From: Fibrobacteria bacterium
GTDB taxonomy: Bacteria; Fibrobacterota; Fibrobacteria; UBA11236; JADFYW01
NCBI GenBank assembly: GCA_050294405.1
Contig: JBNKOC010000012.1
Location: forward strand, 103,031-135,030
Direction of reading: 5' to 3'
DNA length: 32,000 nt
The stretch's first letter is position 1. Each line of letters opens with the position of its first letter. Positions 627 to 19,933 of the stretch are shown in pieces. Both the position numbers and the translations under genes were made by a program. The notes beneath the pieces were generated by a model that saw only the letters and a program-made list of their open reading frames with translations, did not search any database and was not told the DNA's origin.

Positions 627-974
627 TTATTCCTGCAGTCCGATATAAACAAAGCCTTTTTCAACTCGCACATTATAGATTTGAATTTTATAGTTTTCAC
701 CGCTTAAGCACTCCCCATTGGTTAGAGAAAATGTTTTTTTATGATGGGGACAGGCAACTTTTGGAATACCATCTTTTGTGCCGGTTAAGCCTCTAGCTAA
801 TACATTATCTCTTTTGTGAGGACATAAATTTTGACAAGCATACCAGTGCTTGTAATTAGAAAAATTAAATATGGCGATTTGTTTGCCCTTTAATTTTGCA
901 CAGGCTCCTCCATTCATTGGGAAATCTGATACGGCAGAAACCTTATGCCAAGTAGTGCTTTGCTGAGCAATCAT
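627..974 (-). CDS. nirD: Nitrite reductase [NAD(P)H] small subunit (Rieske-like)
   Basis: 115 aa with the NirD pattern ...FNF...WYACQNLCPHK...VACPHHKKTF.... The start overlaps the nirB stop by 4 nt (ATGA), and a GAGG Shine-Dalgarno lies inside the nirB 3' end. Confidence 0.9.
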   Translation of the reverse strand: MIAQQSTTWHKVSAVSDFPMNGGACAKLKGKQIAIFNFSNYKHWYACQNLCPHKRDNVLARGLTGTKDGIPKVACPHHKKTFSLTNGECLSGENYKIQIYNVRVEKGFVYIGLQE

Positions 975-3659: not shown

Positions 3660-5441
3660 ATGAGTTTCACAGAGTCTCTTTTTTGGTACAAGTGTTGCTC
3701 TTTCATAATAAATATGATAGCCATCCAAGAACGCAATAATCACAAGCTAGAAATAGTTTTGGGTCAATCCAGTTTGACTGGTCTTAGGGAGCGTAATGAA
3801 GATTTTTATGCATGTATTAAGCCGCAAAAGGTATCGACTTTAAATTACAAGGGTATTGCAGCAGTAATTGCGGATGGTGTTGGAGATACGGGTTATGGAC
3901 AAGAGGCTAGCCGTTATGCGGTGAGCACTTTTTTCTCAGAATATTTCAGTACTCCCGATTCTTGGAGCATAGAGCGATCCGGGGAAGAGGTGATAAAATC
4001 CATTAACAGTTGGTTGTACTCCCAGTCAGAACGCAACATTGGGGATAGTGGCCTTATGACGGCTTTCTCTGCAGCTATTTTATGTGGAAGCACTCTGCAT
4101 ATTTTCCATGTGGGAGACACAAGAATTTATTTAAAAGCAAAAAATAAATTAAAAAGGCTCACCAAGGATCATAGGGCTCATCACGGCCAAAATCAAATAA
4201 TTCGGGCATTGGGGTTAGATAGTAATGTTTACATCGATTATACACAGGAGATATTGGAACCAGATTCTTCTGTTATTATGATGACGGATGGCGTGCATAA
4301 TTATTTATCTGATGATAAAATCACAGGTTTTTTAAATAAGTTTGCAGCTCCTCAAGTGGCTTCAGAAGCATTAACAATGGCATCTCTTCGTGAGGGAAGT
4401 ACTGATAACATAAGCTGTCAAATAATTAACATAAAACACCTTCCTCCGTCGACAAAAAATGAAATTTATCAACGTTCCCGTGACTTGAAATTCCCCCCTC
4501 CCTTGAAAGTGGGTGCTTTTGTGGATTCTTATGAAATTCAGGAAGAACTAGGTTATGGAGCTATGGGGATAGTGTATTCCGCTTACGATTCTAAGAATGA
4601 TAAAGTGGTGGCTTTAAAGTGTCCCCGACAAGAATTTGAACAGGATATTATTTTCAGGGAAAGGCTCCTAAGGGAGGAATGGATTGGCCAGCGAGTTCAC
4701 AATCCAAATTTGATGAAAGTGCTGAATCCGAGTCATGTGCGCATGGAATACCATTATTTGGTAATGGAGTATTGTAAGGGATTTTCTCTTCGGGAACAAT
4801 TGGATAGTGGTAAGCATTTTAGTCATAATGATGTTGTTGAAATTGCTAAACAAATATGCAGAGGGTTGACAGAACTTCATCACATGGAAATTGTCCATAG
4901 GGATATTAAACCTGATAGTATTATTTGGAGTCAAGACGGTATGGTTAAGATAATCGACTATGGCATAGCCAAAGTTGGTAGTTTAAAATCTTTAACTTCA
5001 AATGCCAACGCTCCATGGATGGGAAGTCCCAATTACATGGCTCCTGAGATGTTCAAAAACAGTAGGGGGAATTCTGTCACGGATATATTCAGCCTTGGTG
5101 TCACCATGTATGAACTGTTAACAAGCTCCATGCCATATGGGGAGATAGACGCTGGAAAAGGTTATAAGAATACTGAGTTTGTTTCTTTACAAGAACTAAA
5201 CCCGGAAGTACCTAGCTGGCTTTCTACGGTGGTAGTTAAATGTTTGCACTTAGATCCTGACTCACGGTATCAAGCTGCTTCAGAAGTTCTATATGATTTG
5301 GAACATCCAGAAAAGGTTTTGCCTGATATGCGTTTTATTCCTTTATTGGAACGAAACCCTGTACTTGTTTGGAAAGTGATTTCGGCGACATTGCTTGGGA
5401 TTGTAGTTGTTTTGTCAGTGCTTTTGATTCGAGGGCGTTAA
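3660..5441 (+). CDS. Bifunctional PP2C-type Ser/Thr phosphatase / Hanks-type Ser/Thr kinase with a C-terminal membrane anchor (true start probably the ATG at 3714)
   Basis: PP2C motifs: AVIADGVGD, HVGDTRIY, MMTDGVHNY, GSTDNIS. Kinase motifs: GYGAMG P-loop, VALK lysine, HRDIKPDS catalytic loop, DYG, APE. The last ~25 residues are hydrophobic (VISATLLGIVVVLSVLLI) followed by RGR. Confidence 0.9.
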   Translation: MSFTESLFWYKCCSFIINMIAIQERNNHKLEIVLGQSSLTGLRERNEDFYACIKPQKVSTLNYKGIAAVIADGVGDTGYGQEASRYAVSTFFSEYFSTPDSWSIERSGEEVIKSINSWLYSQSERNIGDSGLMTAFSAAILCGSTLHIFHVGDTRIYLKAKNKLKRLTKDHRAHHGQNQIIRALGLDSNVYIDYTQEILEPDSSVIMMTDGVHNYLSDDKITGFLNKFAAPQVASEALTMASLREGSTDNISCQIINIKHLPPSTKNEIYQRSRDLKFPPPLKVGAFVDSYEIQEELGYGAMGIVYSAYDSKNDKVVALKCPRQEFEQDIIFRERLLREEWIGQRVHNPNLMKVLNPSHVRMEYHYLVMEYCKGFSLREQLDSGKHFSHNDVVEIAKQICRGLTELHHMEIVHRDIKPDSIIWSQDGMVKIIDYGIAKVGSLKSLTSNANAPWMGSPNYMAPEMFKNSRGNSVTDIFSLGVTMYELLTSSMPYGEIDAGKGYKNTEFVSLQELNPEVPSWLSTVVVKCLHLDPDSRYQAASEVLYDLEHPEKVLPDMRFIPLLERNPVLVWKVISATLLGIVVVLSVLLIRGR

Positions 5442-9712: not shown

Positions 9713-10384
9713 ATGGACAAAATAAGTTCTGGTATGCTGCCCAGAGAAAAAATAATGCGTTTTGGGGTGGAAAAGTTAGAGGTATGGGAGTTGTTTGCTG
9801 TAGTTTTAGGGGTTGGTTACCCAGGAAAAGGTATTCTGGAACTTTCCAAAGATATCATTGAGGGTATTTCTGCCAACTCTAGTTATCCTAATCTTGAAGA
9901 ATTGGTTCAAATAAAGGGAATTGGTGAGGCTAAGGCTTGCAAAATATTAGCTGTTTTGGAGCTTTCCAAAAGGTTTATACCATTTGCAGAAAGAGCTAGT
10001 CTTAATTGCCCAGAGGATTTTATTCCGCTACTAGCACCCTTAAAATTTGCCAACCAGGAAGAGTTTTGGGTTTTTACGCTGGATTCAACAAATAAGCTTA
10101 TACAATCCCATGCAGTTACAAAAGGTTTGGTGAACCAAAGCCCCATTCATCCCCGAGAGGTTTTTGCTCCTGCTATAGTAGATAGAGCTGTAAACCTAGT
10201 TTTATGCCATAACCATCCTTCTGGAAGCCTCAAACCCTCCAGGGCAGATTTGGATGTGACTCGGGAATTGGTGAGTTTGGGTTCTCAATTAAAAATACCC
10301 ATCCTAGATCATATTATCGTATCCAGCAAAGGTATATGTTCTTTATCCAGGGAAATGCCGGATTTATTTTTGTATGGCCCTTAG
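9713..10384 (+). CDS. radC: RadC-family JAB/MPN-domain protein
   Basis: 223 aa. It has an HhH-like IKGIGEAKACKILA segment and the JAMM motif HNHPSGSLKPSRADLDVT. AGGTGA Shine-Dalgarno at 9704-9709. Confidence 0.9.
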   Translation: MDKISSGMLPREKIMRFGVEKLEVWELFAVVLGVGYPGKGILELSKDIIEGISANSSYPNLEELVQIKGIGEAKACKILAVLELSKRFIPFAERASLNCPEDFIPLLAPLKFANQEEFWVFTLDSTNKLIQSHAVTKGLVNQSPIHPREVFAPAIVDRAVNLVLCHNHPSGSLKPSRADLDVTRELVSLGSQLKIPILDHIIVSSKGICSLSREMPDLFLYGP

Positions 10385-10410
10385 GGGAAAAGAAGACCAT
10401 AATTAGGTAC

Positions 10411-11919
10411 ATGCGGGTAATCCATAAATTTTGGAAAAGAATAGGGCTGCTTTTGTGCTCAGCCTATTTGGTTTCAAGTTGCGTAAAGATTGAAACAAAA
10501 GAAATAAAATACCCTGATGGAGCGATAAAAGAAAAATATAGCTATTACCTGGCTGAAGGCGGTTTGGAAATCTGGGATGGAAAATACAGCCGTTGGTATC
10601 CATCGGGAAAACTCGCCGAAGAATCAAATTGGAATGAAGGTATTCTCCACGGGGTTCAAACTCAGTGGTATGAAAATGGCAATAAAAAAATGGAAGGAAA
10701 CTGGATTTTTGGAGAGGAAGAAGGTGTTTTTAAGAAATGGTATGTAAATGGTCAGTTGGCTGAAGAAATGGCTTTTGAAACCGGCCGCCCCAAAGGACAA
10801 AAAACAGTGTGGCATCCTAATGGAAAGAAAAAATCAGAATTGATGATTGTTAACGGATTAGAAGATGGGATAGAAAATATATGGGATGATAATGGAGATG
10901 TTTATTCCCAAAGGTTTTGGATAAGTGGAAAGCTTGATAGCGTTAAAACATACATTCCCGAGTCAGAGTTGAAACAAATGTCAATCGAGTTTGAGCCTGG
11001 AAAAAAGGCGGAGGAATTTAGCTATTTTTTAGATCCTGATGGAAACCAAATTCGACATGGAGATTTAAAGCAATGGTATGACAACGGGCAGTTGGAACGA
11101 AATATTTCTTTTGATTTCGGAAAAAAAAATGGAATGGAAATTTGGTATTTCGAAAATGGTTTAAAAAAATCAGAAATTCCCTGGAAGGTTGGGAAAAAAG
11201 ATGGCGTGGAAAAACATTGGTATCCAAATGGTGAATTTCAAAAAAGTGAAGAAAACTATGATACAGGGATATTAAATGGAGTTGTAAAAAACTGGTACCC
11301 AAATGGTAAATTAAAAAGTGAATTTTATTACGTTGATGGCAAACTCAGCGATACAGCAATGCTGTGGTTTGAATCGGGTACATTAAAGTCCAAAGCAGTT
11401 TACAGTGAAGGTAAGCTCAATGGCCAGGTGATCAGTTGCTACCCTATAGGACAAAAGAAATCTGTAGCTAGTTTTCAGGAAGGTGTAAAACATGGGAAAT
11501 ACCAGGAGTTTTATACTCATGGTCAGATAAAGTTGGAAGTGGAATACAATCGGGGTATAAAAATTGCGGAAAGTGTTAAGAAGTGGACTAAAGGTGGAGA
11601 TAGGGTGGATTTGAGCAAAATGTATACAGCTGTTGAAAAAGCCCAGTTGGAGCAAAAAATCAAACAATCCCATTCTAATTGTCAAAAAGAAATTGAGAAC
11701 GTTGCTGAACTTAAGGCAAAGTTAAATAGCGGTAGCCTGTATAAAGAACTGCAAAAACTTGAAATCAGCTACAACAGATCAGAACAAAAAAAAGAGGAAG
11801 AGTGCGAGTCCTACGGGGACAAAGTTGAAGAATACTTAAATTATTTTTCAAAAGAAGAATTGGATGAATTTTTACGTCTACAAAACTTAAGCCCTCTTAA
11901 TAGCCCCGGTTTCAACTGA
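10411..11919 (+). CDS. MORN-variant (YwqK-like) repeat lipoprotein with a C-terminal coiled-coil tail
   Basis: The ORF track starts at 10336. The ATG at 10411 gives a signal peptide with the lipobox LVSS-C. About 14 repeats of about 23 aa follow (G.....W/Y..NG.L..E......G...G). The last ~110 aa are K/E-rich and helical. Confidence 0.8.
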   Translation: MRVIHKFWKRIGLLLCSAYLVSSCVKIETKEIKYPDGAIKEKYSYYLAEGGLEIWDGKYSRWYPSGKLAEESNWNEGILHGVQTQWYENGNKKMEGNWIFGEEEGVFKKWYVNGQLAEEMAFETGRPKGQKTVWHPNGKKKSELMIVNGLEDGIENIWDDNGDVYSQRFWISGKLDSVKTYIPESELKQMSIEFEPGKKAEEFSYFLDPDGNQIRHGDLKQWYDNGQLERNISFDFGKKNGMEIWYFENGLKKSEIPWKVGKKDGVEKHWYPNGEFQKSEENYDTGILNGVVKNWYPNGKLKSEFYYVDGKLSDTAMLWFESGTLKSKAVYSEGKLNGQVISCYPIGQKKSVASFQEGVKHGKYQEFYTHGQIKLEVEYNRGIKIAESVKKWTKGGDRVDLSKMYTAVEKAQLEQKIKQSHSNCQKEIENVAELKAKLNSGSLYKELQKLEISYNRSEQKKEEECESYGDKVEEYLNYFSKEELDEFLRLQNLSPLNSPGFN

Positions 11920-11979: not shown

Positions 11980-14157
11980 ATGGAAATTCCAGTAGCTGTA
12001 AAAGCAGCAAAATATTTAATGCTGCTGTCTGCTTTATCTCTGCAATTTTCCTGTAAGCAAAATGGAAGTGTAAAAATGGAAAATAAATTACGAAATGAAA
12101 AAAGCCCCTATCTCCTGCAGCATGCTAAAAATCCGGTCCATTGGTATCCTTGGGGTGAGGAAGCGTTTAACAGAGCTAAAAAAGAAAATAAACTAATACT
12201 ATTGTCCATTGGTTATTCTACTTGCCACTGGTGCCATGTCATGGAAAAAGAATCTTTTGAAAAAGAGGATGTGGCAGCTATCCTTAACAAATATTATGTA
12301 AGTATTAAGGTAGATAGAGAGGAACGCCCGGATGTAGATAATTTGTATATGGGATTAGCACAAGCTTTAGGGGTTGGGGGAGGCTGGCCCCTTAATTTGT
12401 TCTTAACTCCCGACCAGGTTCCTTTTACCGGGGGCACCTATTTTCCTCCGGAAGATGCTTATGGTAAGCGAAGTTTTAAATATGTGCTTCAAACTGTGGC
12501 AAAAATGTGGGAAAGCGAACCTCAGAAAATTTTAGATACAGAAAAAGGGGTGCTAAAATATATCAATCAAAAAAATGAAGTAACCCCCACAGCTGTAAAT
12601 ATTGAAGCGTTGCATCAAAAGGCGATTTTAGAAAAAGCTTCTATGTATGAGCCGGCGTATGGGGGCTTTTCTTCAGCTCCAAAGTTCCCTATGGGTCACG
12701 CACTTTCCTATTTGATATTGCTCGAAAAAAGAAATCCAGACAAAGTGCTTCTCAATAGAATAACCCACACTTTGGATAACATGGCTTCGGCCGGGCTTTA
12801 CGATCAAATTGGAGGGGGGTTTCATCGTTATTCCACAGACAGGGAATGGCTGGTGCCCCATTTTGAAAAAATGTTATACGACCAGGCGCTTTTGATTACT
12901 GCATATGCCAATGCCTACAGCAATACCTTAAATAGCCGCTATGCAGAAATTGTAGCGGAAACAATTGAGTATCTGCGTAGAGATATGTTGGATGAAAAGG
13001 GAGGTTTTTATTCGGCTGAAGATGCCGATAGCGAGGGAGAAGAAGGGACTTTTTATTTATGGGAAATATCGGAACTCAAGGAATTAGTTCCAGAGAATAT
13101 TGGAATGTTAATGGATTGGTTTGATATAAAAGAGCATGGGAATTTCGAGGGAAAAAATATTTTAACCCGTAAACATACTATTAGATGGTTGGCGGAAAAG
13201 TATGGAAAAGATGAAGACGGGTTGAAAGCTAAAATAAAGGAAATGAATTCCAGGCTTTTGGCCGCAAGAAGCCAAAGAATCCGGCCTCATTTGGACGATA
13301 AAATTTTAACAGACTGGAACGGTTTAGTTATATCGGCGTTAAGCAAGGCAGCCCAGGCTTTGCCCGATTCGCTGGGCGATATATATAAAAAAGAAAATAG
13401 CCTTAATATGGCAAAAAATGCGGCCGAATTTGTTTTAAAAGAATTAAGAGATAAGGATAACCGGCTTTTAAAAAGTTACAGGCAAGGGCCTTCTAACATC
13501 GCAGGGTTTATTGAGGATTACGCCTTTTTTGCCAATGGACTATTGGACTTGTATGAAAGCAGTTTCGAAGTAAAATACCTTGAGGAGGCTGTGGCTACAG
13601 CCCGCCAGATGATTGAAAATTTTTGGGACTCCAAGGACGGTGGCTTTTATTTTATTCCTAAAGATGGAAGCATGCTCTTAAAAAATGCCAAGGAACTCAA
13701 TGACGGAGCTATTCCCAGCGGAAATAGTGTGGCGGCGCAGGTATGTGCTCGTCTATATCGCATTACCGCAAATGAGGAATACAAAAACATATTGGAAAAA
13801 ATGATTTCCTTTTTTGGCCCTCAAATTAATACCTATCCTTCCAGCTATCCTGTTTTTTTATCCGCATTGGATATGTATTATAATCCCGGTCCTGAAATTA
13901 TTTTATCCGGAAATAAAGAAAACGAATCCTTTAAAAAAATTTGGAGCCTGGTAAAAAAATACCCATCCATAAACCAAATATTAATTCATGTTCCTGAACA
14001 CAGTGAATCAGCCATATTTGAAATAGCTCCTTTTACCAAACAACAACGAGTCGTTGAAGGAGATGTAACCTTTTATTATTGCCAAAATAGAACATGCCAA
14101 AGACCTTTGAATTCTCCCGTAGATGTGGAAGAATTTTTAAAATCAGTTGCCGGATAA
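11980..14157 (+). CDS. Thioredoxin-domain protein of the YyaL/DUF255 (SPATA20-like) family, apparently a lipoprotein
   Basis: The ORF track starts at TTG 11962. The ATG at 11980 gives MEIPVAV...[10 protein letters not shown]. It has the conserved [12 protein letters not shown] thioredoxin-like motif, followed by a long alpha-helical (alpha/alpha-barrel-like) region. Confidence 0.85.
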
Positions 14158-14865
14158 TATTTGCAATATTGTGCTTTTGTGATTATCGAGATAATAAGAA
14201 AAATCGTGAAGGCCATCAGGGAAAATATACAGGCTGGTGTTTGGATTTTGTTTTTTCCATTCTTTAAAAACAGGTTCAATTTTTTCAATTGGAAAGAGTC
14301 TGTCGTTTCCTCCCTGAAAAAAGTGCCAATGCCCTTTTTGAAACCCATCTTGACTGTAATTTTTTTGATTTAAAATAATTTGAGGGGCGCTGGAAAATAA
14401 AAGCCTCTTGGTTATATTAAAGGGGCTGTTAATACTAAAGTGAATCACGGCTAAAGAGCCATCCGAAACACCAAATAAAATAATCGGCAATTTTTCCAAT
14501 TGCTGTTTGGCGATAAATTCCCTTAAAAAACTATTTATGTTTGTCATTAGTTGCGGGTGAAGCCAATGTAAGTTTCTATTGGCTGAGGGGCTGAATACTA
14601 TATAATCATTTCTGTTTATAAGAGGGTATATGCCTGTTAAGGCTTGTTTCCCTTTGTCTGATATGGGACTATTCATGCCGCCATGAAACCAGATGATAAT
14701 ACCTTTGGCCGAGGTCATGTTTGAAGGAAAGCTGGCGCCGTAGAAAACATTTTCAGAGCCGAATTGAAAAATGGAGTCCCGGAAGGAAAAAGAATTCTCC
14801 AGAAAGAAAAACAAATGGCAAAATAATAAAAGATGAATCTTTGTATTCATACTCATTAATTGCAA
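14143..14865 (-). CDS. Secreted alpha/beta-hydrolase (esterase-like), function unknown
   Basis: 240 aa with an N-terminal hydrophobic signal. HGG oxyanion motif (IIWFHGGMN), nucleophile elbow GVSDG, and candidate Asp (GGNDRLFP) and His (DGLHDF). It starts 21 nt downstream of motB on the same strand. Confidence 0.65.
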
Positions 14866-14886: not shown

Positions 14887-15561
14887 TTAGTGGATTCGAA
14901 TTACAATTCTTCTGTTGGCGGCTTGGTTTTCTGGAATGGGCTTGCCGTTGGAGTCCCTGTTGGGAGCAACAGGCTTGGTATCTGCATATCCTGCAGCCTT
15001 AAGCCTGTCCCCATTCACGCCAGTTTCTATCATATACTTAACAATGTTTGTTGCCCTGGAAACGCTAAGCTCCCAGTTTGAGGGAAAACGAATGGTGTTA
15101 ATGGGAACATCATCTGTATGTCCTTCCACATCCACTACAAAGGGGTAATAATCAACCTGCTTAATGGCTTGTGAAACCTTATCAATCAGGTTTTGTGCTG
15201 TTGGGCTTATGTCGGCACTCCCGCCAGCGTAAAAAGCCGAACTTGCAAATTTTAACATTATGTTTTTTTGGTCCTGCTTTATATTAACCTGCTGGGCTGC
15301 TTTCTCATCAGCCAATAACGAGTCCAGAGCCCGCTTAATATCAGCCAAGGGAGTTTTTATCTTCTCGTCTTTGATTTCCGAAATGATTCCAGATTTCATT
15401 TGTTCCCATAAGCTCATATCCACTTTTGAAATGGATATTAACATTAAAAAAAACGCCATAAGAAGGGTTATCATATCCCCGTAGGTATTCATCCAGTCAT
15501 CTAAATTCACCTCTTCAGGTTCGTTTAGTCTGTATTTGTTTTTATGGGATTTTAAAGCCAT
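14887..15561 (-). CDS. motB: MotB/PomB-type stator subunit with an OmpA-like peptidoglycan-binding domain
   Basis: 224 aa. Single TM helix with the conserved channel Asp (YGD29MITLLMAFFLML; codon 15475-15477). C-terminal OmpA-like motif GHTDDVP...NWELSVSRA...NRRIVI. Confidence 0.9.
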   Translation of the reverse strand: MALKSHKNKYRLNEPEEVNLDDWMNTYGDMITLLMAFFLMLISISKVDMSLWEQMKSGIISEIKDEKIKTPLADIKRALDSLLADEKAAQQVNIKQDQKNIMLKFASSAFYAGGSADISPTAQNLIDKVSQAIKQVDYYPFVVDVEGHTDDVPINTIRFPSNWELSVSRATNIVKYMIETGVNGDRLKAAGYADTKPVAPNRDSNGKPIPENQAANRRIVIRIH

Positions 15562-15572
15562 GAATCGCTGCC

Positions 15573-16367
15573 TTATTTTTTGGGCTCAGCATCCATTTGA
15601 AATTTATTTTTTCTGTCCAAATAGGCGTTTAATTTATCCTGAATATAAAATGGACTTTTCTTTTCCAGTATTAACATAAACCCTTCAAGGATTAGATATT
15701 CCCGGAACCTTTGGATTCCTAAAATTTGCTTTACTTTGGTGGAGCATGGTTGGAATATAAATCTGGCGAATAAAACCCCATATAATGTGGTCATGAGGGC
15801 AATAGACAAACCAGGTCCCATTTGAGAGGGGTCATCCATTTTGCTTAACATTACAATTAATCCAATTAAGGTGCCTACCATGCCAAAAGCCGGAGCGGCA
15901 GAGGCCATTGTGTTTAATATGTTGGATTCGGATAGATGTCTGAAGTAGTGCTCTTCAATGGCGGTTTCGGTAAACTCAGCCACCTCATCTTTGGAATAGC
16001 CGGTACTGATTAAGGAACTAACATACTTCACGAAATCATCTTTTGTCTCATTTCCGATGTTTTCAAAAGCGTTGATTCCGTCTTGGGATACACGCCTGGA
16101 CCAGCTGATAACCATTCCCACATCCTGCATAAGAGATTTTGGAGTTATTTTCTGGCGTACGAAAACTTTAAATATAGATAAAAGAGCTACAAAAATATAG
16201 CGCCAGCGATACCCGATAAAAGCAGATGTTACGGTACCTCCAACAACAATGGAAGCGCTGGGACCGCTGATAAATATGCTCCAGTCATTAGTTGCGCTTA
16301 AAACACCCCAGGAAACAATTCCCACACCAAAAATAACACCGAATACGGTGGAAAGGGAAAGAAACAT
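15573..16367 (-). CDS. motA: MotA/PomA-type stator subunit (MotA/TolQ/ExbB channel family)
   Basis: 264 aa with a 2+2 TM layout and a large cytoplasmic loop. TM3 reads AAPAFGMVGTLIGLI and TM4 reads ALMTTLYGVLFARFIFQP, carrying the two conserved prolines. GGAG Shine-Dalgarno upstream; an 11-nt gap to motB. Confidence 0.9.
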   Translation of the reverse strand: MFLSLSTVFGVIFGVGIVSWGVLSATNDWSIFISGPSASIVVGGTVTSAFIGYRWRYIFVALLSIFKVFVRQKITPKSLMQDVGMVISWSRRVSQDGINAFENIGNETKDDFVKYVSSLISTGYSKDEVAEFTETAIEEHYFRHLSESNILNTMASAAPAFGMVGTLIGLIVMLSKMDDPSQMGPGLSIALMTTLYGVLFARFIFQPCSTKVKQILGIQRFREYLILEGFMLILEKKSPFYIQDKLNAYLDRKNKFQMDAEPKK

Positions 16368-17044
16368 TAATTTTGCTCCAAACTTTTGTTGGCTTTTTTA
16401 AGCTTATTCAACATTTGAATAACAGCTGGCATATCAGGGTTTAATCTAAGAGATTGCAACCAGGCTTCTTTGGCGGCGGGCATATCGTCCATCATGTATA
16501 ATATGCTTCCCATAAGGGCGTATCCATCTGACGTTTCTTGTTTTTGTAAACTGAATTTCACCATGTCCAAAGCTTCCGGAAATCTTTTCTGATAGAAAAA
16601 CTCCTGCGCCTTTCTAATTTCCGCCAAGACCTGCTGCATATCGCCTTTTGTAAGGTCATTGCCTTTGGCTATATCCATAACATCATCCCAATTTTCTTTT
16701 TTGTCTTTTTCTTCTTCCTCTTTAGCGGCAGAGTCTACGGAGGTTTTTTTGCTGGATTGCTGGACTTGAGGGGCGACAGGAGAAGGCGGGGGAACCGGGC
16801 TGCCTGACATTACCAAATTTACATCCTGGCTGTTTATGTCCACAACCATAGTTACATTTGAAGACTTGTTAGTGTATGAAATTTTCATTTCATTGCTATT
16901 TTTTGGCGCTGGAGAAGAAACCTGGTTATTCTCTGCACGGGTATCCGCGCTTTTTTTATCTGCCTTTGAGGAGGCGCAGCCCATAGCTCCCAATAGGGCT
17001 ATGTAAATCAGGCTAGAAGGTATAATTAAGGATGTCCACTTCAT
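16367..17044 (-). CDS. TPR-containing lipoprotein, function unknown
   Basis: 225 aa with lipobox LGAMG-C23. A low-complexity Ser/Pro/Gln linker (SPVPPPSPVAPQVQQ) and an acidic KEEEEKDKK stretch precede a C-terminal TPR-like pair (FFYQKRFPEALDM...AKEAWLQSLRLNPD). It overlaps both neighbouring genes. Confidence 0.7.
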   Translation of the reverse strand: MKWTSLIIPSSLIYIALLGAMGCASSKADKKSADTRAENNQVSSPAPKNSNEMKISYTNKSSNVTMVVDINSQDVNLVMSGSPVPPPSPVAPQVQQSSKKTSVDSAAKEEEEKDKKENWDDVMDIAKGNDLTKGDMQQVLAEIRKAQEFFYQKRFPEALDMVKFSLQKQETSDGYALMGSILYMMDDMPAAKEAWLQSLRLNPDMPAVIQMLNKLKKANKSLEQN

Positions 17045-18092
17045 AAGCTAGTTTCTCAAAGGTGATTTTGTGCCCCACTGCATCTCCCAAAGAACCGGTG
17101 ATAAACCGATCTCCAGCTATGTAACTTACCCCAATGGATACTCCAAAATGTTTGGAGAGTTGAGCGTTATATCCATAGGTAAAAACCGGAATGCTGCCTG
17201 TAAATAAAAAAGGAACATAATAGTAGGCGCTAAAATAGGTCCCCAACCAATGGCCCCTGTCCCGGTTTCCTTTGGGAACTAACACGGCCCAAACTCCAAC
17301 TCCAATTTGCATGGTGTATATGCCGCTGTAGCCCAATTCAATACTGTCTTTTTTGGAGATTGCCATGCGGGATACACCTGCGTTGATGTTAAACCACAAC
17401 CTTCGGTTTTTGGTCAAGGCTTCAGTGACACTCCCTTCAATGGCGACTTGGTTAAACCCGGTTTCCTTGTCTATGCCGCTTTGTCCCTCAAACTTTTCCA
17501 TGGAAAAAATTCGAATAGGTACATGAGCGGACCATTTTAAGTCGAATATGCTAGGCTCCACCTTGTTGGGTCCTGCGATAAAATCTCCAGACCACAATAT
17601 TTCAGCAGTTCGGTGCTTCACTAATTTTAGATTTAACATTACATCGCCATCCTTGGACTTGCTGCAAGAACCTTCAATAAAAGCGTCAATTCTTAATTTA
17701 TCGCCAAGCTTCCAAAGCTCTTCGATAGTAGGAATGGTGTTAGACATGCTAAAGGAGGTATCGGTGCTGATAATATTCAGGGTTTTTAGTTCGGGGGGAG
17801 ATACTAGCGTACGGCGGCCTTCATCCCGCAATGTAGTTTCAATTCGGCCTTGAATGTATCTGGACTCCCCTTTTGTGAAACCTTTGGAATCCGTTCTGAT
17901 TTGGTAAATGGCGATTTTTTCCACCGAGGGAGGTATATCCCCTAATGTTTCCTTTAGCTCAGCAATAATTTTTTCAATTTGCTTGATTCCGGAGGATGTT
18001 TCATAAAAGGGATGGTTCTCCGGTAGGTTTTCCGTTACATTGTCCCCGAAAGAAAAGGCGAATAGAAACCCCAATAATGTTAGTATTCTCAT
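17013..18092 (-). CDS. Outer-membrane protein: CsgG/FlgO/LpoB-like periplasmic domain plus a C-terminal beta-barrel-like region
   Basis: 359 aa with signal peptide MRILTLLGFLFAFSFG. The N-terminal half follows the pattern KIAIYQIRTD...IQGRIETTL...LGDKLRIDAFIEGS...VMLNLKLVKHRTAEILWSG. The C-terminal half has alternating amphipathic strands and ends in ...LNYTF, a terminal Phe OMP signature. Strong GGGAGG/GGAGG Shine-Dalgarno upstream. Confidence 0.6.
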   Translation of the reverse strand: MRILTLLGFLFAFSFGDNVTENLPENHPFYETSSGIKQIEKIIAELKETLGDIPPSVEKIAIYQIRTDSKGFTKGESRYIQGRIETTLRDEGRRTLVSPPELKTLNIISTDTSFSMSNTIPTIEELWKLGDKLRIDAFIEGSCSKSKDGDVMLNLKLVKHRTAEILWSGDFIAGPNKVEPSIFDLKWSAHVPIRIFSMEKFEGQSGIDKETGFNQVAIEGSVTEALTKNRRLWFNINAGVSRMAISKKDSIELGYSGIYTMQIGVGVWAVLVPKGNRDRGHWLGTYFSAYYYVPFLFTGSIPVFTYGYNAQLSKHFGVSIGVSYIAGDRFITGSLGDAVGHKITFEKLAYEVDILNYTF

Positions 18093-19933
18093 GCCTCCGG
18101 CCTCCCGCCATAGGCTTTGATATCCTGCCTGATTTTTTGCAAAAGGGTTTTTTGCGCGCTTTCAATTTCTTCAGCTTTTAAATCGGTTTTGGTTTCCAAA
18201 CCCGATTTTATCATAAGCTGCATCCGCTCAGGTAGTAAGGAAATTACTTTTAATTTTATGTCTTCTTCTACTCCGGCAAGGGCATTGGTAAGTACATCCT
18301 GGTTTACATTTCTAACAGAATTAGTGAGAAACTTGTCGGGAAGGCTGGTGATTTCAGGTAGGGTGATAAAATTGTTTTTGATTTTTTCCGCCAGGTTTAA
18401 ATCCACTTCTGCAATGGAATTCAGATATTCTCCCTGGACAGAAATGGGAAGGCTGTCTAAAACATCCAGTACGCTTTCAATGCCATCAGAAGCTACATAG
18501 CGCATGTTTATAACTTCAAGCGCGTTGGCAGACAATCTATCCGCTAGTTCCTTGTATACTTTAAGGGGGATGTTTTGAATTTTTCCCATTCCCGCAAGAA
18601 TTTTTGTGCGCTTGGATTTATCCAATTTTTGAAGTATGGAGCTTGCTTTGGACGGTTCCACCTGGGCTAAAGCCATGCCAATGATTCCTTCAGATTCCTC
18701 CTTTAACAGGTGGAGGATTTGTTGTTCGTTCATCTGGCGCAAAAACCCAAAGAGATCTGCATATTCGCTTTCGTTTATTATGGAGCTGGTTTGGTTTTGG
18801 TAATCTTCTTTGAATTGCTTATACACAGCTAAAACTTCTTCCCCCGCCAAGGGTTCCAATTGTTTTAACCTATTTTCGATATTTTTAGTTTCTTCTTTTC
18901 CCAGTTCTGTGGAAACAACTTTTAATATTCTTTCATCAACTGCCTTAATTAATTTTGTTGTTTCCTGATGTCCTTCTTCACCTTTTTGCTGAATCCATTT
19001 CTTTAATACCTGAGAGCTGGAGGCTGTGTCCCCAATAAAGGCGCTTAACACATAAGAACGCATTTCCCGGAGTTCGTTATTCCCACTGTCCTCTTCTTTA
19101 TTAGCCTCTGTAGATTTTTCTTTTTCGGGAGCTGTTTTAATTTCCTGGAGTTCGTTGATGATGTTAGTATAGGAATCCTGGACCTTGCTTCGCTGCCGGT
19201 TTTTAGAAAACGCTCGGGAAACAATAACGGCAATTAACAAAACAAAAATGCAAATGATGAGTAGGGGTATTAAAGAAGCCAGGTTGTCCACCAAAGGTTT
19301 GAAGGGGTTTAATTTTTCCTCTTTTTCCAACAGCTCGGAATCCGCCTTACTGCTGGGTAAGGCTTTTGGGTCCATGTTTTCAGCCAATTGATATCCCGAA
19401 TTAGGCTTTTTCTGGACTGGGAAAATTCCGGAGCGAATATCCAGCCTGTCTCCCCGATATTCATTTAAATTTGCCGACATGCTAATAAGCTTTTTAATAA
19501 AGGAGTAGTCTTTATCTTCATAGCTTGTATCCACCATGATTTCCACTTCCACATGGTTAATGGAAAAGTCACTTTGTTTTTTCCCAGCCCTGGCTTTTGC
19601 CGCCCCTTCCTTCATGTCATTGGGCAACACAGGCAGCCCCGGCAGGGTGTATATATCATCCAAATCCCCTTCCAGATCAATTTCTTCAGACTCGTTCAGA
19701 AACACATTGGCATCTACTAAAAAAGTCCGTTCATCATAATATTTGCTGAGAACATCTTTTATTAGAACTTCGTAGTAGTGGGAGGCTTTGCGAGATTGGG
19801 CTTCGTATTTGCTTCTATCCTCATTTTTAACTTTAAATTCCTGGCCATTAGCCGGGGCAAAAAGGATTATTGCAAAAAAGGCCCACTGGATGATGCCTGC
19901 AAATTTCATTGATACACTCAATTTTTGAAGCAA
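18089..19933 (-). CDS. Membrane-anchored FliF-like / FliG-like fusion protein (probable true start at ATG 19909)
   Basis: Signal peptide or TM1 MKFAGIIQWAFFAIILFAPANG. The periplasmic ~190 aa end in VEVEIMVD...FIKKLISMSANLNEYRGDRLDIRSGIF, which resembles a FliF/SctJ ring-building motif. TM helix at aa 217-239, followed by KNRQRSK. The cytoplasmic ~320 aa align by eye to FliG N, M (ILHLLKEESEGIIGMALAQVEPSKASSILQKL) and C (DKFLTNSVRNVNQDVLTNALAGVEEDIKLKVISLLPERMQLMIK...AEEIESAQKTLLQKIR) domains. Confidence 0.7.
   Translation of the reverse strand: MLQKLSVSMKFAGIIQWAFFAIILFAPANGQEFKVKNEDRSKYEAQSRKASHYYEVLIKDVLSKYYDERTFLVDANVFLNESEEIDLEGDLDDIYTLPGLPVLPNDMKEGAAKARAGKKQSDFSINHVEVEIMVDTSYEDKDYSFIKKLISMSANLNEYRGDRLDIRSGIFPVQKKPNSGYQLAENMDPKALPSSKADSELLEKEEKLNPFKPLVDNLASLIPLLIICIFVLLIAVIVSRAFSKNRQRSKVQDSYTNIINELQEIKTAPEKEKSTEANKEEDSGNNELREMRSYVLSAFIGDTASSSQVLKKWIQQKGEEGHQETTKLIKAVDERILKVVSTELGKEETKNIENRLKQLEPLAGEEVLAVYKQFKEDYQNQTSSIINESEYADLFGFLRQMNEQQILHLLKEESEGIIGMALAQVEPSKASSILQKLDKSKRTKILAGMGKIQNIPLKVYKELADRLSANALEVINMRYVASDGIESVLDVLDSLPISVQGEYLNSIAEVDLNLAEKIKNNFITLPEITSLPDKFLTNSVRNVNQDVLTNALAGVEEDIKLKVISLLPERMQLMIKSGLETKTDLKAEEIESAQKTLLQKIRQDIKAYGGRPEA

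Follow-up and report, generated by a model that had tools for sequence, protein, structure and literature searches.

Five tightly packed minus-strand genes in the 32,000-nt stretch of Fibrobacterota DNA analysed here (the window) encode what we consider, with moderate confidence, to be a self-contained machine that derives from the flagellar motor but is not a flagellum, in which a standalone rotor–stator is coupled to outer-membrane partners. In this reading, that a ring forms and rotates, its stoichiometry and every contact between partners are inferences, with neither an experiment nor a multimer model behind them. The host lineage is uncultured, and no description of the five-gene module was found in the literature.

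Results

Operon layout

The genes span 14887–19933 (Table 1) and follow one another, from gene 1 to gene 5, with overlaps of 4, 32 and 1 nt and finally a gap of 11 nt; coordinates, strand and junction lengths were all confirmed as given in an earlier note on this DNA. Only the beginning of gene 1 has to be revised. The 614-aa reading frame from TTG exists as claimed, but the database copy of the protein (P0001) has 606 aa, which fits a start at ATG 19909 and not at TTG 19933, so that ATG 19909 is probably the start used.

Table 1 Features of the five-gene operon, in window positions
Feature	Position	Strand	Basis
Gene 1: FliF(RBM3)-TM-FliG fusion	18089..19933	-	ORF, 614 aa from TTG 19933
Gene 1, N-terminal hydrophobic segment (res about 10-30)	19844..19906	-	helix 10-24 in model
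Gene 1, periplasmic RBM3-like ring-building domain (res 34-172)	19418..19834	-	AF2, Foldseek, hhalign
Gene 1, LPGLPxLP motif	19622..19645	-	within 40-residue disordered loop at FliF beta-collar position
Gene 1, TM helix (res 212-244)	19202..19300	-	long helix in model
Gene 1, cytoplasmic linker helices (res 283-319)	18977..19087	-	hhalign to FliF C-tail
Gene 1, FliG-like N, M, C domains (res 322-608)	18110..18970	-	Pfam, PDB profile, Foldseek
Gene 1, torque-helix equivalent (res 566-582, LLPERMQLMIKSGLETK)	18188..18238	-	R570 aligns with E. coli FliG R281
Gene 2: outer-membrane protein, 359 aa	17013..18092	-	ORF
Gene 2, TolB-N/LpoB/FlgT-like periplasmic domain (res 33-175)	17568-17996	-	AF2, Foldseek
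Gene 2, 8-stranded OmpA/OmpW-like barrel (res 186-358)	17019-17537	-	AF2, Foldseek
Gene 3: lipoprotein, 225 aa	16367..17044	-	ORF
Gene 3, lipobox Cys23 codon	16976-16978	-	present in window protein and 15/15 orthologues from related loci
Gene 3, C-terminal TPR-like domain (res about 124-220)	16385-16675	-	Pfam below cut-off, conserved motif
Gene 4: MotA-type stator A subunit, 264 aa	15573..16367	-	ORF
Gene 5: MotB-type stator B subunit, 224 aa	14887..15561	-	ORF
Gene 5, channel Asp29 codon	15475-15477	-	aligns with E. coli MotB D32

Gene 1, a natural FliF–FliG fusion

The Pfam models FliG_N (30.7 bits), FliG_M (38.0) and FliG_C (65.2) all score above their gathering cut-offs on gene 1, profile matches to FliG in the PDB reach down to E = 3.8e-20 and Foldseek aligns FliG over its full length (E = 3e-9), while the curated fliG model TIGR00207 yields 82.7 bits against a cut-off of 226.7. 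At the position equivalent to FliG R281 an R or K is found in 56/56 sequences; at that of D289 the window protein has a G, and 34/56 family members have an acidic residue. The window clade does not conserve the second classical charge pair, MotA R90–FliG D288/D289, and no clean covariation of its members was seen across clades. From the EHPQR motif through which FliG binds FliM, E alone is retained, and this FliM-binding motif is, as far as sequence can tell, lost.

The AlphaFold model of gene 1 is only moderate (pLDDT 68.7, pTM 0.31). Its periplasmic domain adopts an alpha-beta-beta-alpha-beta fold (alpha 34–65, beta 71–81, loop, beta 123–135, alpha 140–153, beta 163–169), for which Foldseek returns S-ring/RBM3 structures of FliF (6scn, 6sd1, 8z4d, 8z5v; TM-score on the target 0.55–0.62, E about 5e-3, probability 1.0), and hhalign pairs residues 124–174 with E. 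coli FliF 373–432, RGD motif included (93% probability, E = 2.6e-7). A FliF-like periplasmic segment and a full FliG N/M/C module, both proposed for this protein in the earlier note, are therefore borne out, the former though its match to FliF is short and weak by sequence and Pfam YscJ_FliF_C stays under its cut-off (17.7 against 23.8). The FliF-like claim has to be narrowed to RBM3 only, since RBM1, RBM2 and the beta-collar are missing from gene 1 in both model and profile comparison.

Residues 83–120, including the LPGLPxLP motif, have a pLDDT below 50. The motif is invariant in alignment A1, and its P98, G99 and P101 are kept in 51–55 of the 56 sequences of the deep alignment A3. The TM helix bears a conserved hydrophobic block, SLIPLLxxC. 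Within the linker, residues 301–319 align with E. coli FliF 534–552 (E = 5e-4, probability only 31%), and Trp313 is invariant in A1 and present in 39/56 A3 sequences; it is suggestive that these helices may be a remnant of the C-terminal FliG-binding tail of FliF, which is not established. At its N-terminus, gene 1 has what may be a signal peptide or a TM1 equivalent; in orthologues, a hydrophobic stretch there precedes A-x-A/Q-type sites. Overall, gene 1 is a natural FliF–FliG fusion composed of RBM3 alone, one TM helix and a complete FliG.

Genes 4 and 5, a flagellar-type stator

Gene 4 scores 79.8 bits with MotA_ExbB. Its top NCBIfam models are PomA (143.8) and MotP (140.4), both under the equivalog cut-offs, whereas the TolQ and ExbB models reach only about 20 bits against cut-offs of 135 and 221. 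Among solved structures, the nearest are without exception flagellar stators (down to E = 1.2e-33). Equivalents of MotA P173 and P222 are invariant; for E98, which gene 4 retains, nearly every sequence has E or D. Gene 5 consists of a plug, a TM helix with Asp29 and an OmpA-like peptidoglycan-binding domain (MotB_plug 55.7 and OmpA 62.8 bits), with MotD as the best NCBIfam model (158 bits); the window protein and 15/15 aligned orthologues all have the channel Asp. By these sequence criteria, genes 4 and 5 encode a stator of flagellar type, a MotA/MotB pair whose channel residues, plug and peptidoglycan anchor are intact.

Genes 2 and 3, outer-membrane partners

The gene 2 protein starts with a signal peptide, ends in ...YTF and has no match in Pfam or NCBIfam. 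Its AF2 model (pLDDT 80.5) matches TolB (1.7e-6), LpoB 4q6z (TMt 0.69), OmpA 1bxw, OmpW 2f1t and FlgT 3w1e in Foldseek and, as modelled, comprises an 8-stranded outer-membrane barrel and a periplasmic TolB-N/LpoB-like domain. All seven organism-labelled members among its 58 homologues come from Fibrobacterota. In gene 3, the lipobox Cys23 is followed by a short conserved beta motif, a low-complexity linker and the TPR-like domain. TPR_1 stays under its cut-off there (25.3 against 27.8 bits); the C-terminal motif is conserved and found again in every architecture. Gene 3 is thus a lipoprotein with a TPR-like head. The initial assignment of genes 2 to 5 as an outer-membrane barrel protein, a TPR lipoprotein and a complete MotA/MotB-type stator was right in each case.

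Conservation and genomic context

The same five genes occur in the same order in 15/15 Fibrobacterota loci long enough to evaluate, with flanks that are not conserved, which is far beyond chance; the block is thus kept as a unit in relatives, as the earlier note had suggested checking, and is widely diversified. The order also persists in L029, L030, L034, L035 and L039, while in L031 (about 20% identity) it is permuted, and the 32-nt overlap of genes 2 and 3 is retained in L001, L003 and L006. About 28 deeply divergent groups hold homologous modules that are reordered or have exchanged partners, and some relatives (L033, L054–L058) lack an adjacent MotAB. The family comprises at least 177 clusters at 50% identity (representatives counted at E <= 1e-30, mostly 560–730 aa with end-to-end matches), and many residues are invariant across 16–56 sequences, to under 20% identity. 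The five-gene set has accordingly been inherited together over very deep divergence.

No other flagellar gene is present in the window, as initially stated, nor within 10 kb past each end; homologues of 20 other E. coli flagellar proteins are absent from 837 kb around 55 loci, and the Pfam-annotated neighbourhoods of related loci contain no other flagellar homologue. The finding that would have refuted the original hypothesis, orthologues always sitting inside flagellar regulons, was therefore not made: in these 55 loci the module never lies among flagellar genes.

Some variants differ in their surroundings or domains. MotB carries a SPOR domain in 6/6 type II modules, and PorP/SprF and DUF5723 genes come after MotB in L035 and L039. 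The contigs of several variants also encode SusC-type TonB receptors or PorP/SprF proteins, a content that we take to be typical of Bacteroidota-like genomes.

Discussion

The module shares with the flagellar motor core the RBM3 fold and RGD motif of FliF, FliG N/M/C with the torque-helix Arg, a TGI4/PomA-like MotA with both prolines (classes from PMC12505986) and a MotB with plug, channel Asp and OmpA-like domain, and the torque-generating contact is likely common to both. It differs by uniting FliF and FliG on a single polypeptide without RBM1, RBM2, beta-collar and EHPQR, by the absence of nearby FliM/N, export gate, rod, hook, filament and chemotaxis genes, by its dedicated barrel and TPR lipoprotein partners, and by scores that fall short of every curated flagellar equivalog cut-off. 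In the flagellum-less Chlamydiaceae, a shortened FliF is naturally fused to a FliG-like part (Bergeron 2016, PMC4768692). That protein of about 330 aa has an RBM2-like region, another RBM-like region of unclear identity and only an M-like region of FliG; injectisome association was proposed and no MotAB partner described (PMC4768692), whereas gene 1 has RBM3 only, full FliG N/M/C, operonic MotAB and outer-membrane partners. Engineered Salmonella and Vibrio fusions are functional and still form MS/S-rings, with rotation supported in Salmonella (PMC4768692; PMC11481574), and provide a precedent for the inferred ring of gene 1, although they are artificial, contain full-length FliF and reside in complete flagella.

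Work on outer-membrane-associated proteins by non-flagellar 5:2 motors is described for GldLM, driving the GldKN ring, and for Myxococcus Agl-Glt (PMC13104615, PMC8986121). GldL/M and AglRQS have no homology to the module and no FliG-like inner-membrane rotor; the likeness to T9SS/gliding rests only on the two neighbourhoods with PorP/SprF-family and DUF5723 genes. Ring parts with TolB-N-like or TPR folds, located in the periplasm or associated with the outer membrane around a MotAB/PomAB-driven rotor, are likewise found in the Vibrio H/T-ring and the Campylobacter disk/scaffold (FlgT, FlgO/P, PflA/B), the FlgT match of gene 2 being at fold level, but these accessories show no sequence homology to the module and decorate a complete flagellum. 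Tol-Pal (TolQRA, TolB, Pal, CpoB) follows a similar logic, with an ion-driven 5:2-type inner-membrane stator linked to a TolB N-terminal-type domain, a TPR protein, a lipoprotein and an OmpA-like peptidoglycan binder, to which the septal SPOR domain of type II MotB can be added. This likeness holds at fold and domain level only, as the module has a MotAB-type instead of a TolQR stator, no TolA, beta-propeller or Pal, and a FliG/RBM3 partner.

These parallels (stator pair, inner-membrane-anchored partner, TolB-N-like domain, TPR protein, OmpA-like binder, and a septum-targeting SPOR domain in all six type II modules) leave room for a possible, if unlikely, static arrangement, a Tol/Ton-like force transducer in which the fusion is not a turning ring and its FliG part merely docks and activates MotAB. 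The energised stator or the fusion would then pull the TolB-N-like barrel protein and the TPR lipoprotein, as TolQR–TolA acts on TolB–Pal–CpoB, keeping the outer membrane attached or constricting it at division. However, the stator is flagellar-type by profile scores and PDB matches, the model has no TolA-like extended periplasmic domain, and retention of a ring-building RBM3 and a complete FliG with its torque-helix Arg over very deep divergence is more than a mere docking site would need.

We hold it to be improbable that the operon serves a canonical flagellum whose genes lie at another place in the genome, whether as an accessory or as an alternative motor module; it might then supply, for instance, a further rotor/stator set, or outer-membrane disk and scaffold components comparable to the Vibrio H/T rings or Campylobacter PflAB/FlgPQ. 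TPR proteins and lipoproteins are typical motor accessories, and the gene 2 N-domain resembles FlgT and a Vibrio LPHT ring protein at fold level (Foldseek ranks 31 and 34). Moreover, flagella belong to the ancestral equipment of Fibrobacterota and are widespread there outside Fibrobacteraceae (PMC4704652), and neighbourhoods, not whole genomes, were surveyed. Yet the module has its own FliF/FliG, which without RBM1, RBM2 and collar or a FliM-binding motif cannot house an export gate and rod or join a switch complex; it never adjoins a flagellar gene in 55 loci, and several variants lie on the seemingly Bacteroidota-like contigs mentioned above. Flagella-less Elusimicrobiota are also reported to have motAB and fliG (bioRxiv 10.1101/2022.07.08.499144), their membership in the module family being unestablished. 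A functionless, decaying remnant of a lost flagellum would explain why most of FliF is missing and why equivalog scores fall far under their cut-offs, but it is very unlikely and we give it next to no weight, given the intact reading frames, the breadth of the family and its many invariant residues, the conserved catalytic and interface residues and two non-flagellar partner genes that are always co-inherited.

The original hypothesis of a non-flagellar trans-envelope machine has thus survived both the domain searches and the flagellar-neighbourhood survey and is supported, with ring formation and rotation remaining hypothetical. We propose a model with two stacked rings, one that the RBM3-like domains would build at the inner membrane on its periplasmic side and, beneath it, one that the FliG parts would build. 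Ion flow through peptidoglycan-anchored MotA5B2 units would push on the FliG_C torque helix, where the MotA E98–FliG R281 charge pair is conserved, and the ring would thereby turn; as it lacks the FliM-binding motif, it would presumably do so in a single direction. At the place of the rod-holding collar of FliF, the invariant LPGLPxLP loop may transmit movement or force to the TPR lipoprotein and to the barrel protein's periplasmic domain, and ion-motive force at the inner membrane would in this way be spent on work at the outer membrane. Two outputs come into question: proteins of the cell surface or outer membrane could be moved, in a gliding- or adhesin-like way, or the envelope could be remodelled at division in the manner of Tol-Pal; the SPOR domain on type II MotB and the PorP/SprF and DUF5723 neighbours were counted as functional hints for the machine. 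The module therefore looks like an undescribed ion-powered machine that spans the cell envelope.

Organization of the operon and its surroundings

The five minus-strand reading frames lie exactly where the earlier note had placed them, and their junctions, overlaps of 4, 32 and 1 nt and a gap of 11 nt, are likewise as it gave them. GC content is even over the module region at ~0.40–0.43. The longest reading frame of gene 1 begins with TTG at 19933 and encodes 614 aa, and all gene 1 residue numbers are counted from this codon; the database copy of the protein (P0001) has 606 aa, which fits an ATG 8 codons downstream at 19909, probably the true start. A sixth gene following MotB is not conserved in any related locus and is not counted in the module. 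The 32-nt overlap between genes 2 and 3 recurs at equal length in three relatives with just 40–57% protein identity, which suggests that translational coupling of the barrel and lipoprotein genes may be conserved. A scan for promoters and terminators inside and around the operon gave nothing above shuffled expectation.

Coordinates of the module and of features in its surroundings and in related loci (L numbers denote related loci carrying the fusion gene, except L036, which is sequence beyond a window end)
Feature	Sequence	Position	Strand	Remarks
Gene 1, FliF(RBM3)-TM-FliG fusion	window	18089-19933	-	
Gene 2, outer-membrane barrel protein	window	17013-18092	-	
Gene 3, TPR-like lipoprotein	window	16367-17044	-	
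Gene 4, MotA	window	15573-16367	-	
Gene 5, MotB	window	14887-15561	-	
Sixth gene after MotB	window	14143-14865		21-nt gap from MotB; weak alpha/beta-hydrolase match
Gene 2/gene 3 overlap	window	17013-17044		32 nt
Gene 2/gene 3 overlap	L001	12926-12957		32 nt
Gene 2/gene 3 overlap	L003	12884-12915		32 nt
Gene 2/gene 3 overlap	L006	9274-9305		32 nt
Long gene 3 orthologue	L001	12926-14332		Pro/Ala-rich C-terminal tail
MORN_2-repeat protein	window	10336-11919	+	within a few kb of the module
MORN_2-repeat protein	L001	8056-9792	-	divergent, directly upstream
PP2C phosphatase–kinase protein	window	3660-5441	+	593 aa
NirB-like and NirD-like subunits	window	627-3493	-	assimilatory nitrite reductase
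LpoB-domain protein	L036	14909-15508		199 aa; ~15 kb past right window end
Fusion family member	L025	1895-3793		full length, 632 aa
SPOR-bearing type II MotB	L041	13205-14710		
SPOR-bearing type II MotB	L043, L044, L047, L048, L051			
MotB with C-terminal TPR repeat	L035	4864-5982		
Three genes directly after MotB	L035	5991-10762		PorP/SprF-family; DUF11-domain; 553 aa with FlgD_ig-like C-terminus
DUF5723 protein directly after MotB	L039	12251-13768		

Further products encoded in the window include nitrite reductase, a PP2C–kinase fusion, acetolactate synthase, RadC, a MORN-repeat protein, a DUF255 thioredoxin-like protein, transporters, CorA, methionine aminopeptidase and a DegP-like protease. 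The PP2C–kinase gene encodes a single protein with an N-terminal PP2C phosphatase and a C-terminal Ser/Thr protein kinase. The nitrite reductase comprises a large subunit of 840 aa resembling NirB and a small, NirD-like Rieske subunit, and a molybdopterin oxidoreductase is encoded a few kb further on, in sequence beyond the window (L037). MORN_2-repeat proteins of 527–578 aa lie near the module both here and in one relative, which may be coincidence.

Apart from the module itself, Pfam searches found no flagellar or chemotaxis gene in the window, bearing out the reported absence of FliM/FliN, export gate, rod, hook, filament and chemotaxis genes, and no flagellar gene occurs in 10 kb on either side. 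Had orthologues always been located inside flagellar regulons, the reading of the module as non-flagellar would have been refuted. We therefore compared all reading frames of 55 loci (837 kb) by phmmer with 21 E. coli flagellar proteins (FliF, G, H, I, L, M, N, P, Q, R; FlhA, FlhB; FlgB-I; FlgK), and only FliG found matches, all of them to the fusion genes. Such single-sequence E. coli queries have low sensitivity for poorly conserved proteins and are sensitive for FlhA, FliI, FliP and the rod and hook proteins.

The FliF–FliG fusion protein

Gene 1 had been described as a FliF-like periplasmic segment, a TM helix and a full FliG-like N/M/C module in one polypeptide. The FliG part of this description holds, with three Pfam domains over their gathering scores (FliG_N 30.7, FliG_M 38.0 and FliG_C 65.2 bits) and with full-length FliG chains of C-ring structures as the top Foldseek matches in the PDB (8wiw, E = 3e-9). 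Curated FliG equivalog cut-offs are not reached (TIGR00207, 82.7 vs 226.7 bits; NF004260, 33.6 vs 550).

The FliF part stands only for the RBM3 domain. YscJ_FliF_C is a weak Pfam match (17.7 bits vs a cut-off of 23.8), and the YscJ_FliF domain was not found by Pfam. In the AlphaFold model (16-sequence input, pLDDT 68.7), an N-terminal hydrophobic helix is followed by a periplasmic unit of the order alpha(34-65)-beta(71-81)-[disordered 83-120]-beta(123-135)-alpha(140-153)-beta(163-169), a TM helix (212-244) and an all-helical cytoplasmic part (283-608). Next after FliG, Foldseek retrieved many RBM3 entries of FliF MS-rings and S-rings (6scn, 6sd1, 8z4d, 8z5v; E ~5e-3 to 2e-2, probability 1.0, target TM-score 0.55-0.62). 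A profile of the 56-member family pairs residues 124-174 with E. coli FliF 373-432 (93% probability, E = 2.6e-7), the final beta-alpha-beta of RBM3 with the RGD motif that directly precedes FliF TM2, and aligns no other region of the periplasmic part to FliF. A full FliF, which has RBM1, RBM2, an RBM3 with beta-collar and two TM helices, is thus not present: the model has a single alpha-beta-beta-alpha-beta domain, without RBM1 and RBM2, and a disordered 40-residue loop, carrying an invariant LPGLPxLP motif, replaces the beta-collar. Closer alignment additionally matched residues 301-319 with the FliG-binding tail at the FliF C-terminus (534-552; E = 5e-4), and since the probability is just 31%, a remnant of this tail is suggestive at best. 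Gene 1 is most simply a fliF–fliG fusion that lacks RBM1, RBM2 and the beta-collar. A pseudogene or an assembly artefact of adjacent fliF and fliG can be ruled out, as the fusion is common to ~130 full-length representatives of the family.

Stator and interface residues

Genes 4 and 5 carry the domains expected from the proposed MotA/MotB stator, namely MotA_ExbB (79.8 bits) in gene 4 and MotB_plug (55.7 bits) and OmpA (62.8 bits) in gene 5. Among NCBIfam models, gene 4 scores best with PomA, MotP and MotA, and gene 5 with MotD, MotB and MotS; gene 4 reaches 143.8 bits with PomA and 140.4 with MotP vs 19.9 with TolQ, 20.1 with ExbB and 12.8 with ZorA. All 10 PDB sequence matches of gene 4 are flagellar stators (Clostridium MotA, 1.2e-33; Vibrio PomA, 1.8e-27), and a stator of TolQR/ExbBD type is excluded by these scores and matches. 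The curated equivalog cut-offs of PomA, MotP, MotA, MotB and MotD are unmet (at best 143.8 vs 341 bits for the MotA-type and 158.1 vs 283 for the MotB-type protein), and the pair constitutes a distinct stator subfamily. The E. coli-specific insert is missing and the plug is present; in the classes of PMC12505986, the predicted stator is flagellar-type (FIT, TGI4-like).

The E. coli sequences of MotA, MotB and FliG in NC_000913.3 served as references for aligning the module proteins, and E. coli positions are used here unless stated otherwise. The channel residue MotB Asp32 and both prolines, MotA Pro173 and Pro222, are invariant in the window protein and in 15 of 15 orthologues, in agreement with a stator. 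In the flagellar motor MotA Glu98 is paired with FliG Arg281; the Glu98 position is E or D in nearly all sequences, and the Arg281 equivalent is R or K in all 56 members of the deep family alignment. In the clade of the window protein and its close orthologues, the MotA R90 position is occupied by Q, S or T and positions 87-88 by K/R, and the FliG D288/D289 positions are S/G, with an invariant E580 (gene 1 numbering) nearby; across the family the 289 position is acidic in 34 of 56 members. The divergent module L031 has R at the MotA R90 position and E-E at FliG 288/289. As proof of a cognate interface, such covariation had to be rejected, since L031 fits the pattern and two other loci (L034 and L035) do not, and no covariation is claimed. 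From the EHPQR motif, which binds FliM in FliG_M, only Glu is conserved, with H, P, Q and R turned to S, a variable residue, G and G/A. Judged from residues alone, the channel and at least one rotor–stator charge pair look functional, and the switch (FliM) interface does not.

Outer-membrane partners

Gene 2 has no Pfam and no NCBIfam match. Its model (35-sequence input, pLDDT 80.5) begins with a signal peptide, continues with an alpha/beta domain (33-175) and closes with a beta-barrel (186-358) whose last residues are ...YTF. Foldseek relates the N-terminal domain to TolB N-terminal domains, LpoB (TMt 0.69), GNA1162 and FlgT, and the barrel to OmpA, OmpW, OprG and OmpX. A separate protein with a Pfam LpoB domain, whose fold equals that of the gene 2 N-domain, is encoded beyond the right end of the window.

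The lipobox Cys of gene 3 is present in the window protein and in 15 of 15 orthologues from related loci. It is followed by a short conserved beta-like motif, a low-complexity linker of hugely variable length among orthologues and a conserved TPR-like domain of ~90 residues, suggesting a length-tunable periplasmic tether. Many orthologues of 390–470 aa carry an extra Pro/Ala-rich C-terminal tail of ~200 aa past the TPR-like domain.

Distribution and architectures

A word-indexed search returned 17 fusion proteins and 58 barrel proteins, with all organism-labelled matches from Fibrobacterota, and a further homology search with the deep alignment recovered the same 17 fusion proteins and added none. 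A scan of species-representative genomes yielded 22 loci, 20 of them in MAGs or SAGs labelled Fibrobacterota, Fibrobacteria, Fibrobacteres or Fibrobacterales; the remaining two lie on a 3.8-kb contig binned 'Bifidobacteriales' (L005) and a 4.4-kb contig binned 'Balneolales' (L025). These bin labels reflect either horizontal spread or misbinning, and the 'Bifidobacteriales' contig is possibly misbinned. The 'Balneolales' contig carries a full-length family member. Labels outside Fibrobacterota are limited to one 'Pseudomonadota', one 'Balneolales' and one 'Bifidobacteriales' MAG.

The earlier note had asked whether the five genes are conserved as a unit. The order fusion–barrel–lipoprotein–MotA–MotB is kept in all 15 loci long enough to judge, and the genes flanking it in the window are kept at none of them. 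An exhaustive HMMER search (E <= 1e-30) gave 177 representatives of 50% identity clusters, mostly of 560–730 aa and matching end to end, which fall into ~28 groups with <30% identity between groups; cluster look-ups for the divergent clades returned mostly unnamed metagenome proteins.

A metagenome scan was run with a clade alignment (A4), and three architectures can be distinguished. Type I loci (L029, L030, L034, L035, L039) have the five genes of the window, with detectable homology of the partner genes; L031 is a type I locus permuted to barrel–lipoprotein–fusion–MotA–MotB. Type II loci (L040 and the marine and soda-lake contigs L041-L051) encode first a protein of ~900–1000 aa that matches Ig-like repeats weakly and carries, at its C-terminus, the same TPR-like motif; the fusion, a small TPR protein, MotA and MotB come next, and this MotB is long (490–610 aa), with a SPOR domain behind the OmpA-like domain in 6 of 6 tested. 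In type III (L033, L054-L058) the fusion has TPR/barrel partners and no MotAB in the sequence available, and the stator may be encoded elsewhere or shared. An ISL3 transposase lies 1.5 kb downstream in L055. Flagellar-type MotAB adjoins the fusion in ~30 of 36 evaluable loci, and the invariant core is the fusion protein together with the TPR-like module. In L035 the domain type of the module partner is fused to the stator as a C-terminal TPR repeat of MotB. The module is conserved across Fibrobacterota, with homologous modules in many deeply divergent, mostly unlabelled metagenomic lineages.

Relation to known systems

Full-text literature searches yielded no account of such a module, nor did a 2025 survey on how MotAB evolved or a 2026 gliding-motor review, in line with the earlier note, which could name no described system. 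The only natural FliF–FliG fusion found described is chlamydial, with ~330 aa, an RBM2-like region, only an M-like region of FliG and no MotAB partner (PMC4768692). Compared with that description, and without direct sequence comparison, gene 1 differs in its length (606–614 aa), its RBM3-like domain and its full FliG N/M/C.

With Zorya, defined here by its ZorC/D/E effectors and a ZorA whose cytoplasmic tail is long, the module shares only a generic ZorB/MotB similarity (68 bits; ZorA, 13.7 bits). PADLOC gave no other match, and Zorya or another defence system is thus excluded. Nor does its sequence place the module among the Tol, Ton, Gld or Agl systems.

Proposed mechanism and alternative readings

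What the analysis establishes are homologies, a topology read from signal, TM and lipobox features, conserved residues and co-inheritance; the mechanism built on them is inferred. The S-ring of FliF, a 33/34-mer, is built by RBM3, and the FliG ring lies beneath it. Covalent FliF–FliG fusions are still able to form rings (PMC11481574), and in Salmonella they function (cited in PMC4768692). Taking these points together, we propose that gene 1 would assemble into a ring of two tiers, one within and one below the inner membrane. MotA5B2 units anchored to peptidoglycan would turn this ring by ion flow via a MotA–FliG_C contact, and in one direction only, since there is no switch interface. Neither an export gate nor a rod has to be carried by the ring, and its sole conspicuous periplasmic feature is the LPGLPxLP loop, which may contact the TPR lipoprotein, the TolB-N-like domain of gene 2 or both. 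In this way, the ion-motive force of the inner membrane would be put to work at the outer membrane. As to the kind of work, SPOR domains bind septal peptidoglycan, and a role at division resembling that of Tol-Pal is suggested by their occurrence on type II MotB. The genes after MotB in L035 and L039, one neighbourhood each, point to surface-protein handling and may indicate a link to type 9 secretion.

We consider a rotary envelope machine the probable reading, with considerable doubt remaining. A transducer that works like Tol without rotating would accommodate the TolB N-terminal fold and the Tol-Pal-like role to which SPOR points; measured against the parts of Tol-Pal (TolQ, TolR, TolA, a TolB with beta-propeller, and Pal), the module shares only this fold, its TolQ score is 19.9 vs a cut-off of 221 bits, no propeller is modelled, and we regard such a transducer as unlikely while keeping it in play. 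The flagellar MS-ring, FliG and MotAB are the closest relatives of the module, and flagella are ancestral in the phylum and were lost in Fibrobacteraceae (PMC4704652). An accessory of a flagellar motor can consequently be envisaged. The module nevertheless fails the criteria of a flagellar rotor, lacking RBM1, RBM2, collar, EHPQR and flagellar neighbours and missing the curated cut-offs, which leaves an accessory role more doubtful still. To a mere relic we give hardly any credence, with channel residues invariant.

In a fuller form, the rotary reading describes a new class of ion-driven nanomachine, in which a flagellum-derived RBM3–FliG ring without secretion system or axial structure is turned by MotAB and passes torque to outer-membrane proteins, and which is widespread in uncultured Fibrobacterota and present also in divergent lineages with Bacteroidota-like neighbour genes. 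For this whole we see the chances as evenly balanced; within it, the machine may underlie an unrecognised surface motility or outer-membrane remodelling or division. The observation of the earlier note is confirmed and its structural interpretation supported and refined, while its functional hypothesis survives those tests that could be run and remains unproven. A flagellum-derived, stand-alone rotor–stator module with outer-membrane partners appears undescribed: the novelty is at system level, around a torque-generating core of known kind.

Implications

To our knowledge, the other non-flagellar MotA-family 5:2 motors (Ton, Tol, Agl-Glt, GldLM, Zorya) all work without FliG, and we know FliG solely as the torque ring of flagella, which is why a stand-alone RBM3–FliG ring would matter. 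With it, FliG would for the first time be seen in a non-flagellar role, and a branch would be added to the short list of rotary or force-transducing envelope machines. It would also supply structural and single-molecule torque studies with a natural minimal rotor, made from one rotor gene without switch, export gate or rod, that could be informative on flagellar motor operation in the absence of switch and export apparatus. For flagellar evolution, it would mean that the rotor–stator core is detachable and reusable or, less likely, offer a glimpse of a pre-secretion rotor.

According to a preprint, flagella-less, free-living Elusimicrobiota carry motAB and fliG in an unclear role (10.1101/2022.07.08.499144). 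The module may explain such reports in flagella-less bacteria, with membership of the Elusimicrobiota genes in the family not established, and it may hint at a motility or envelope function, as yet unknown, of major uncultured lineages that degrade polymers.
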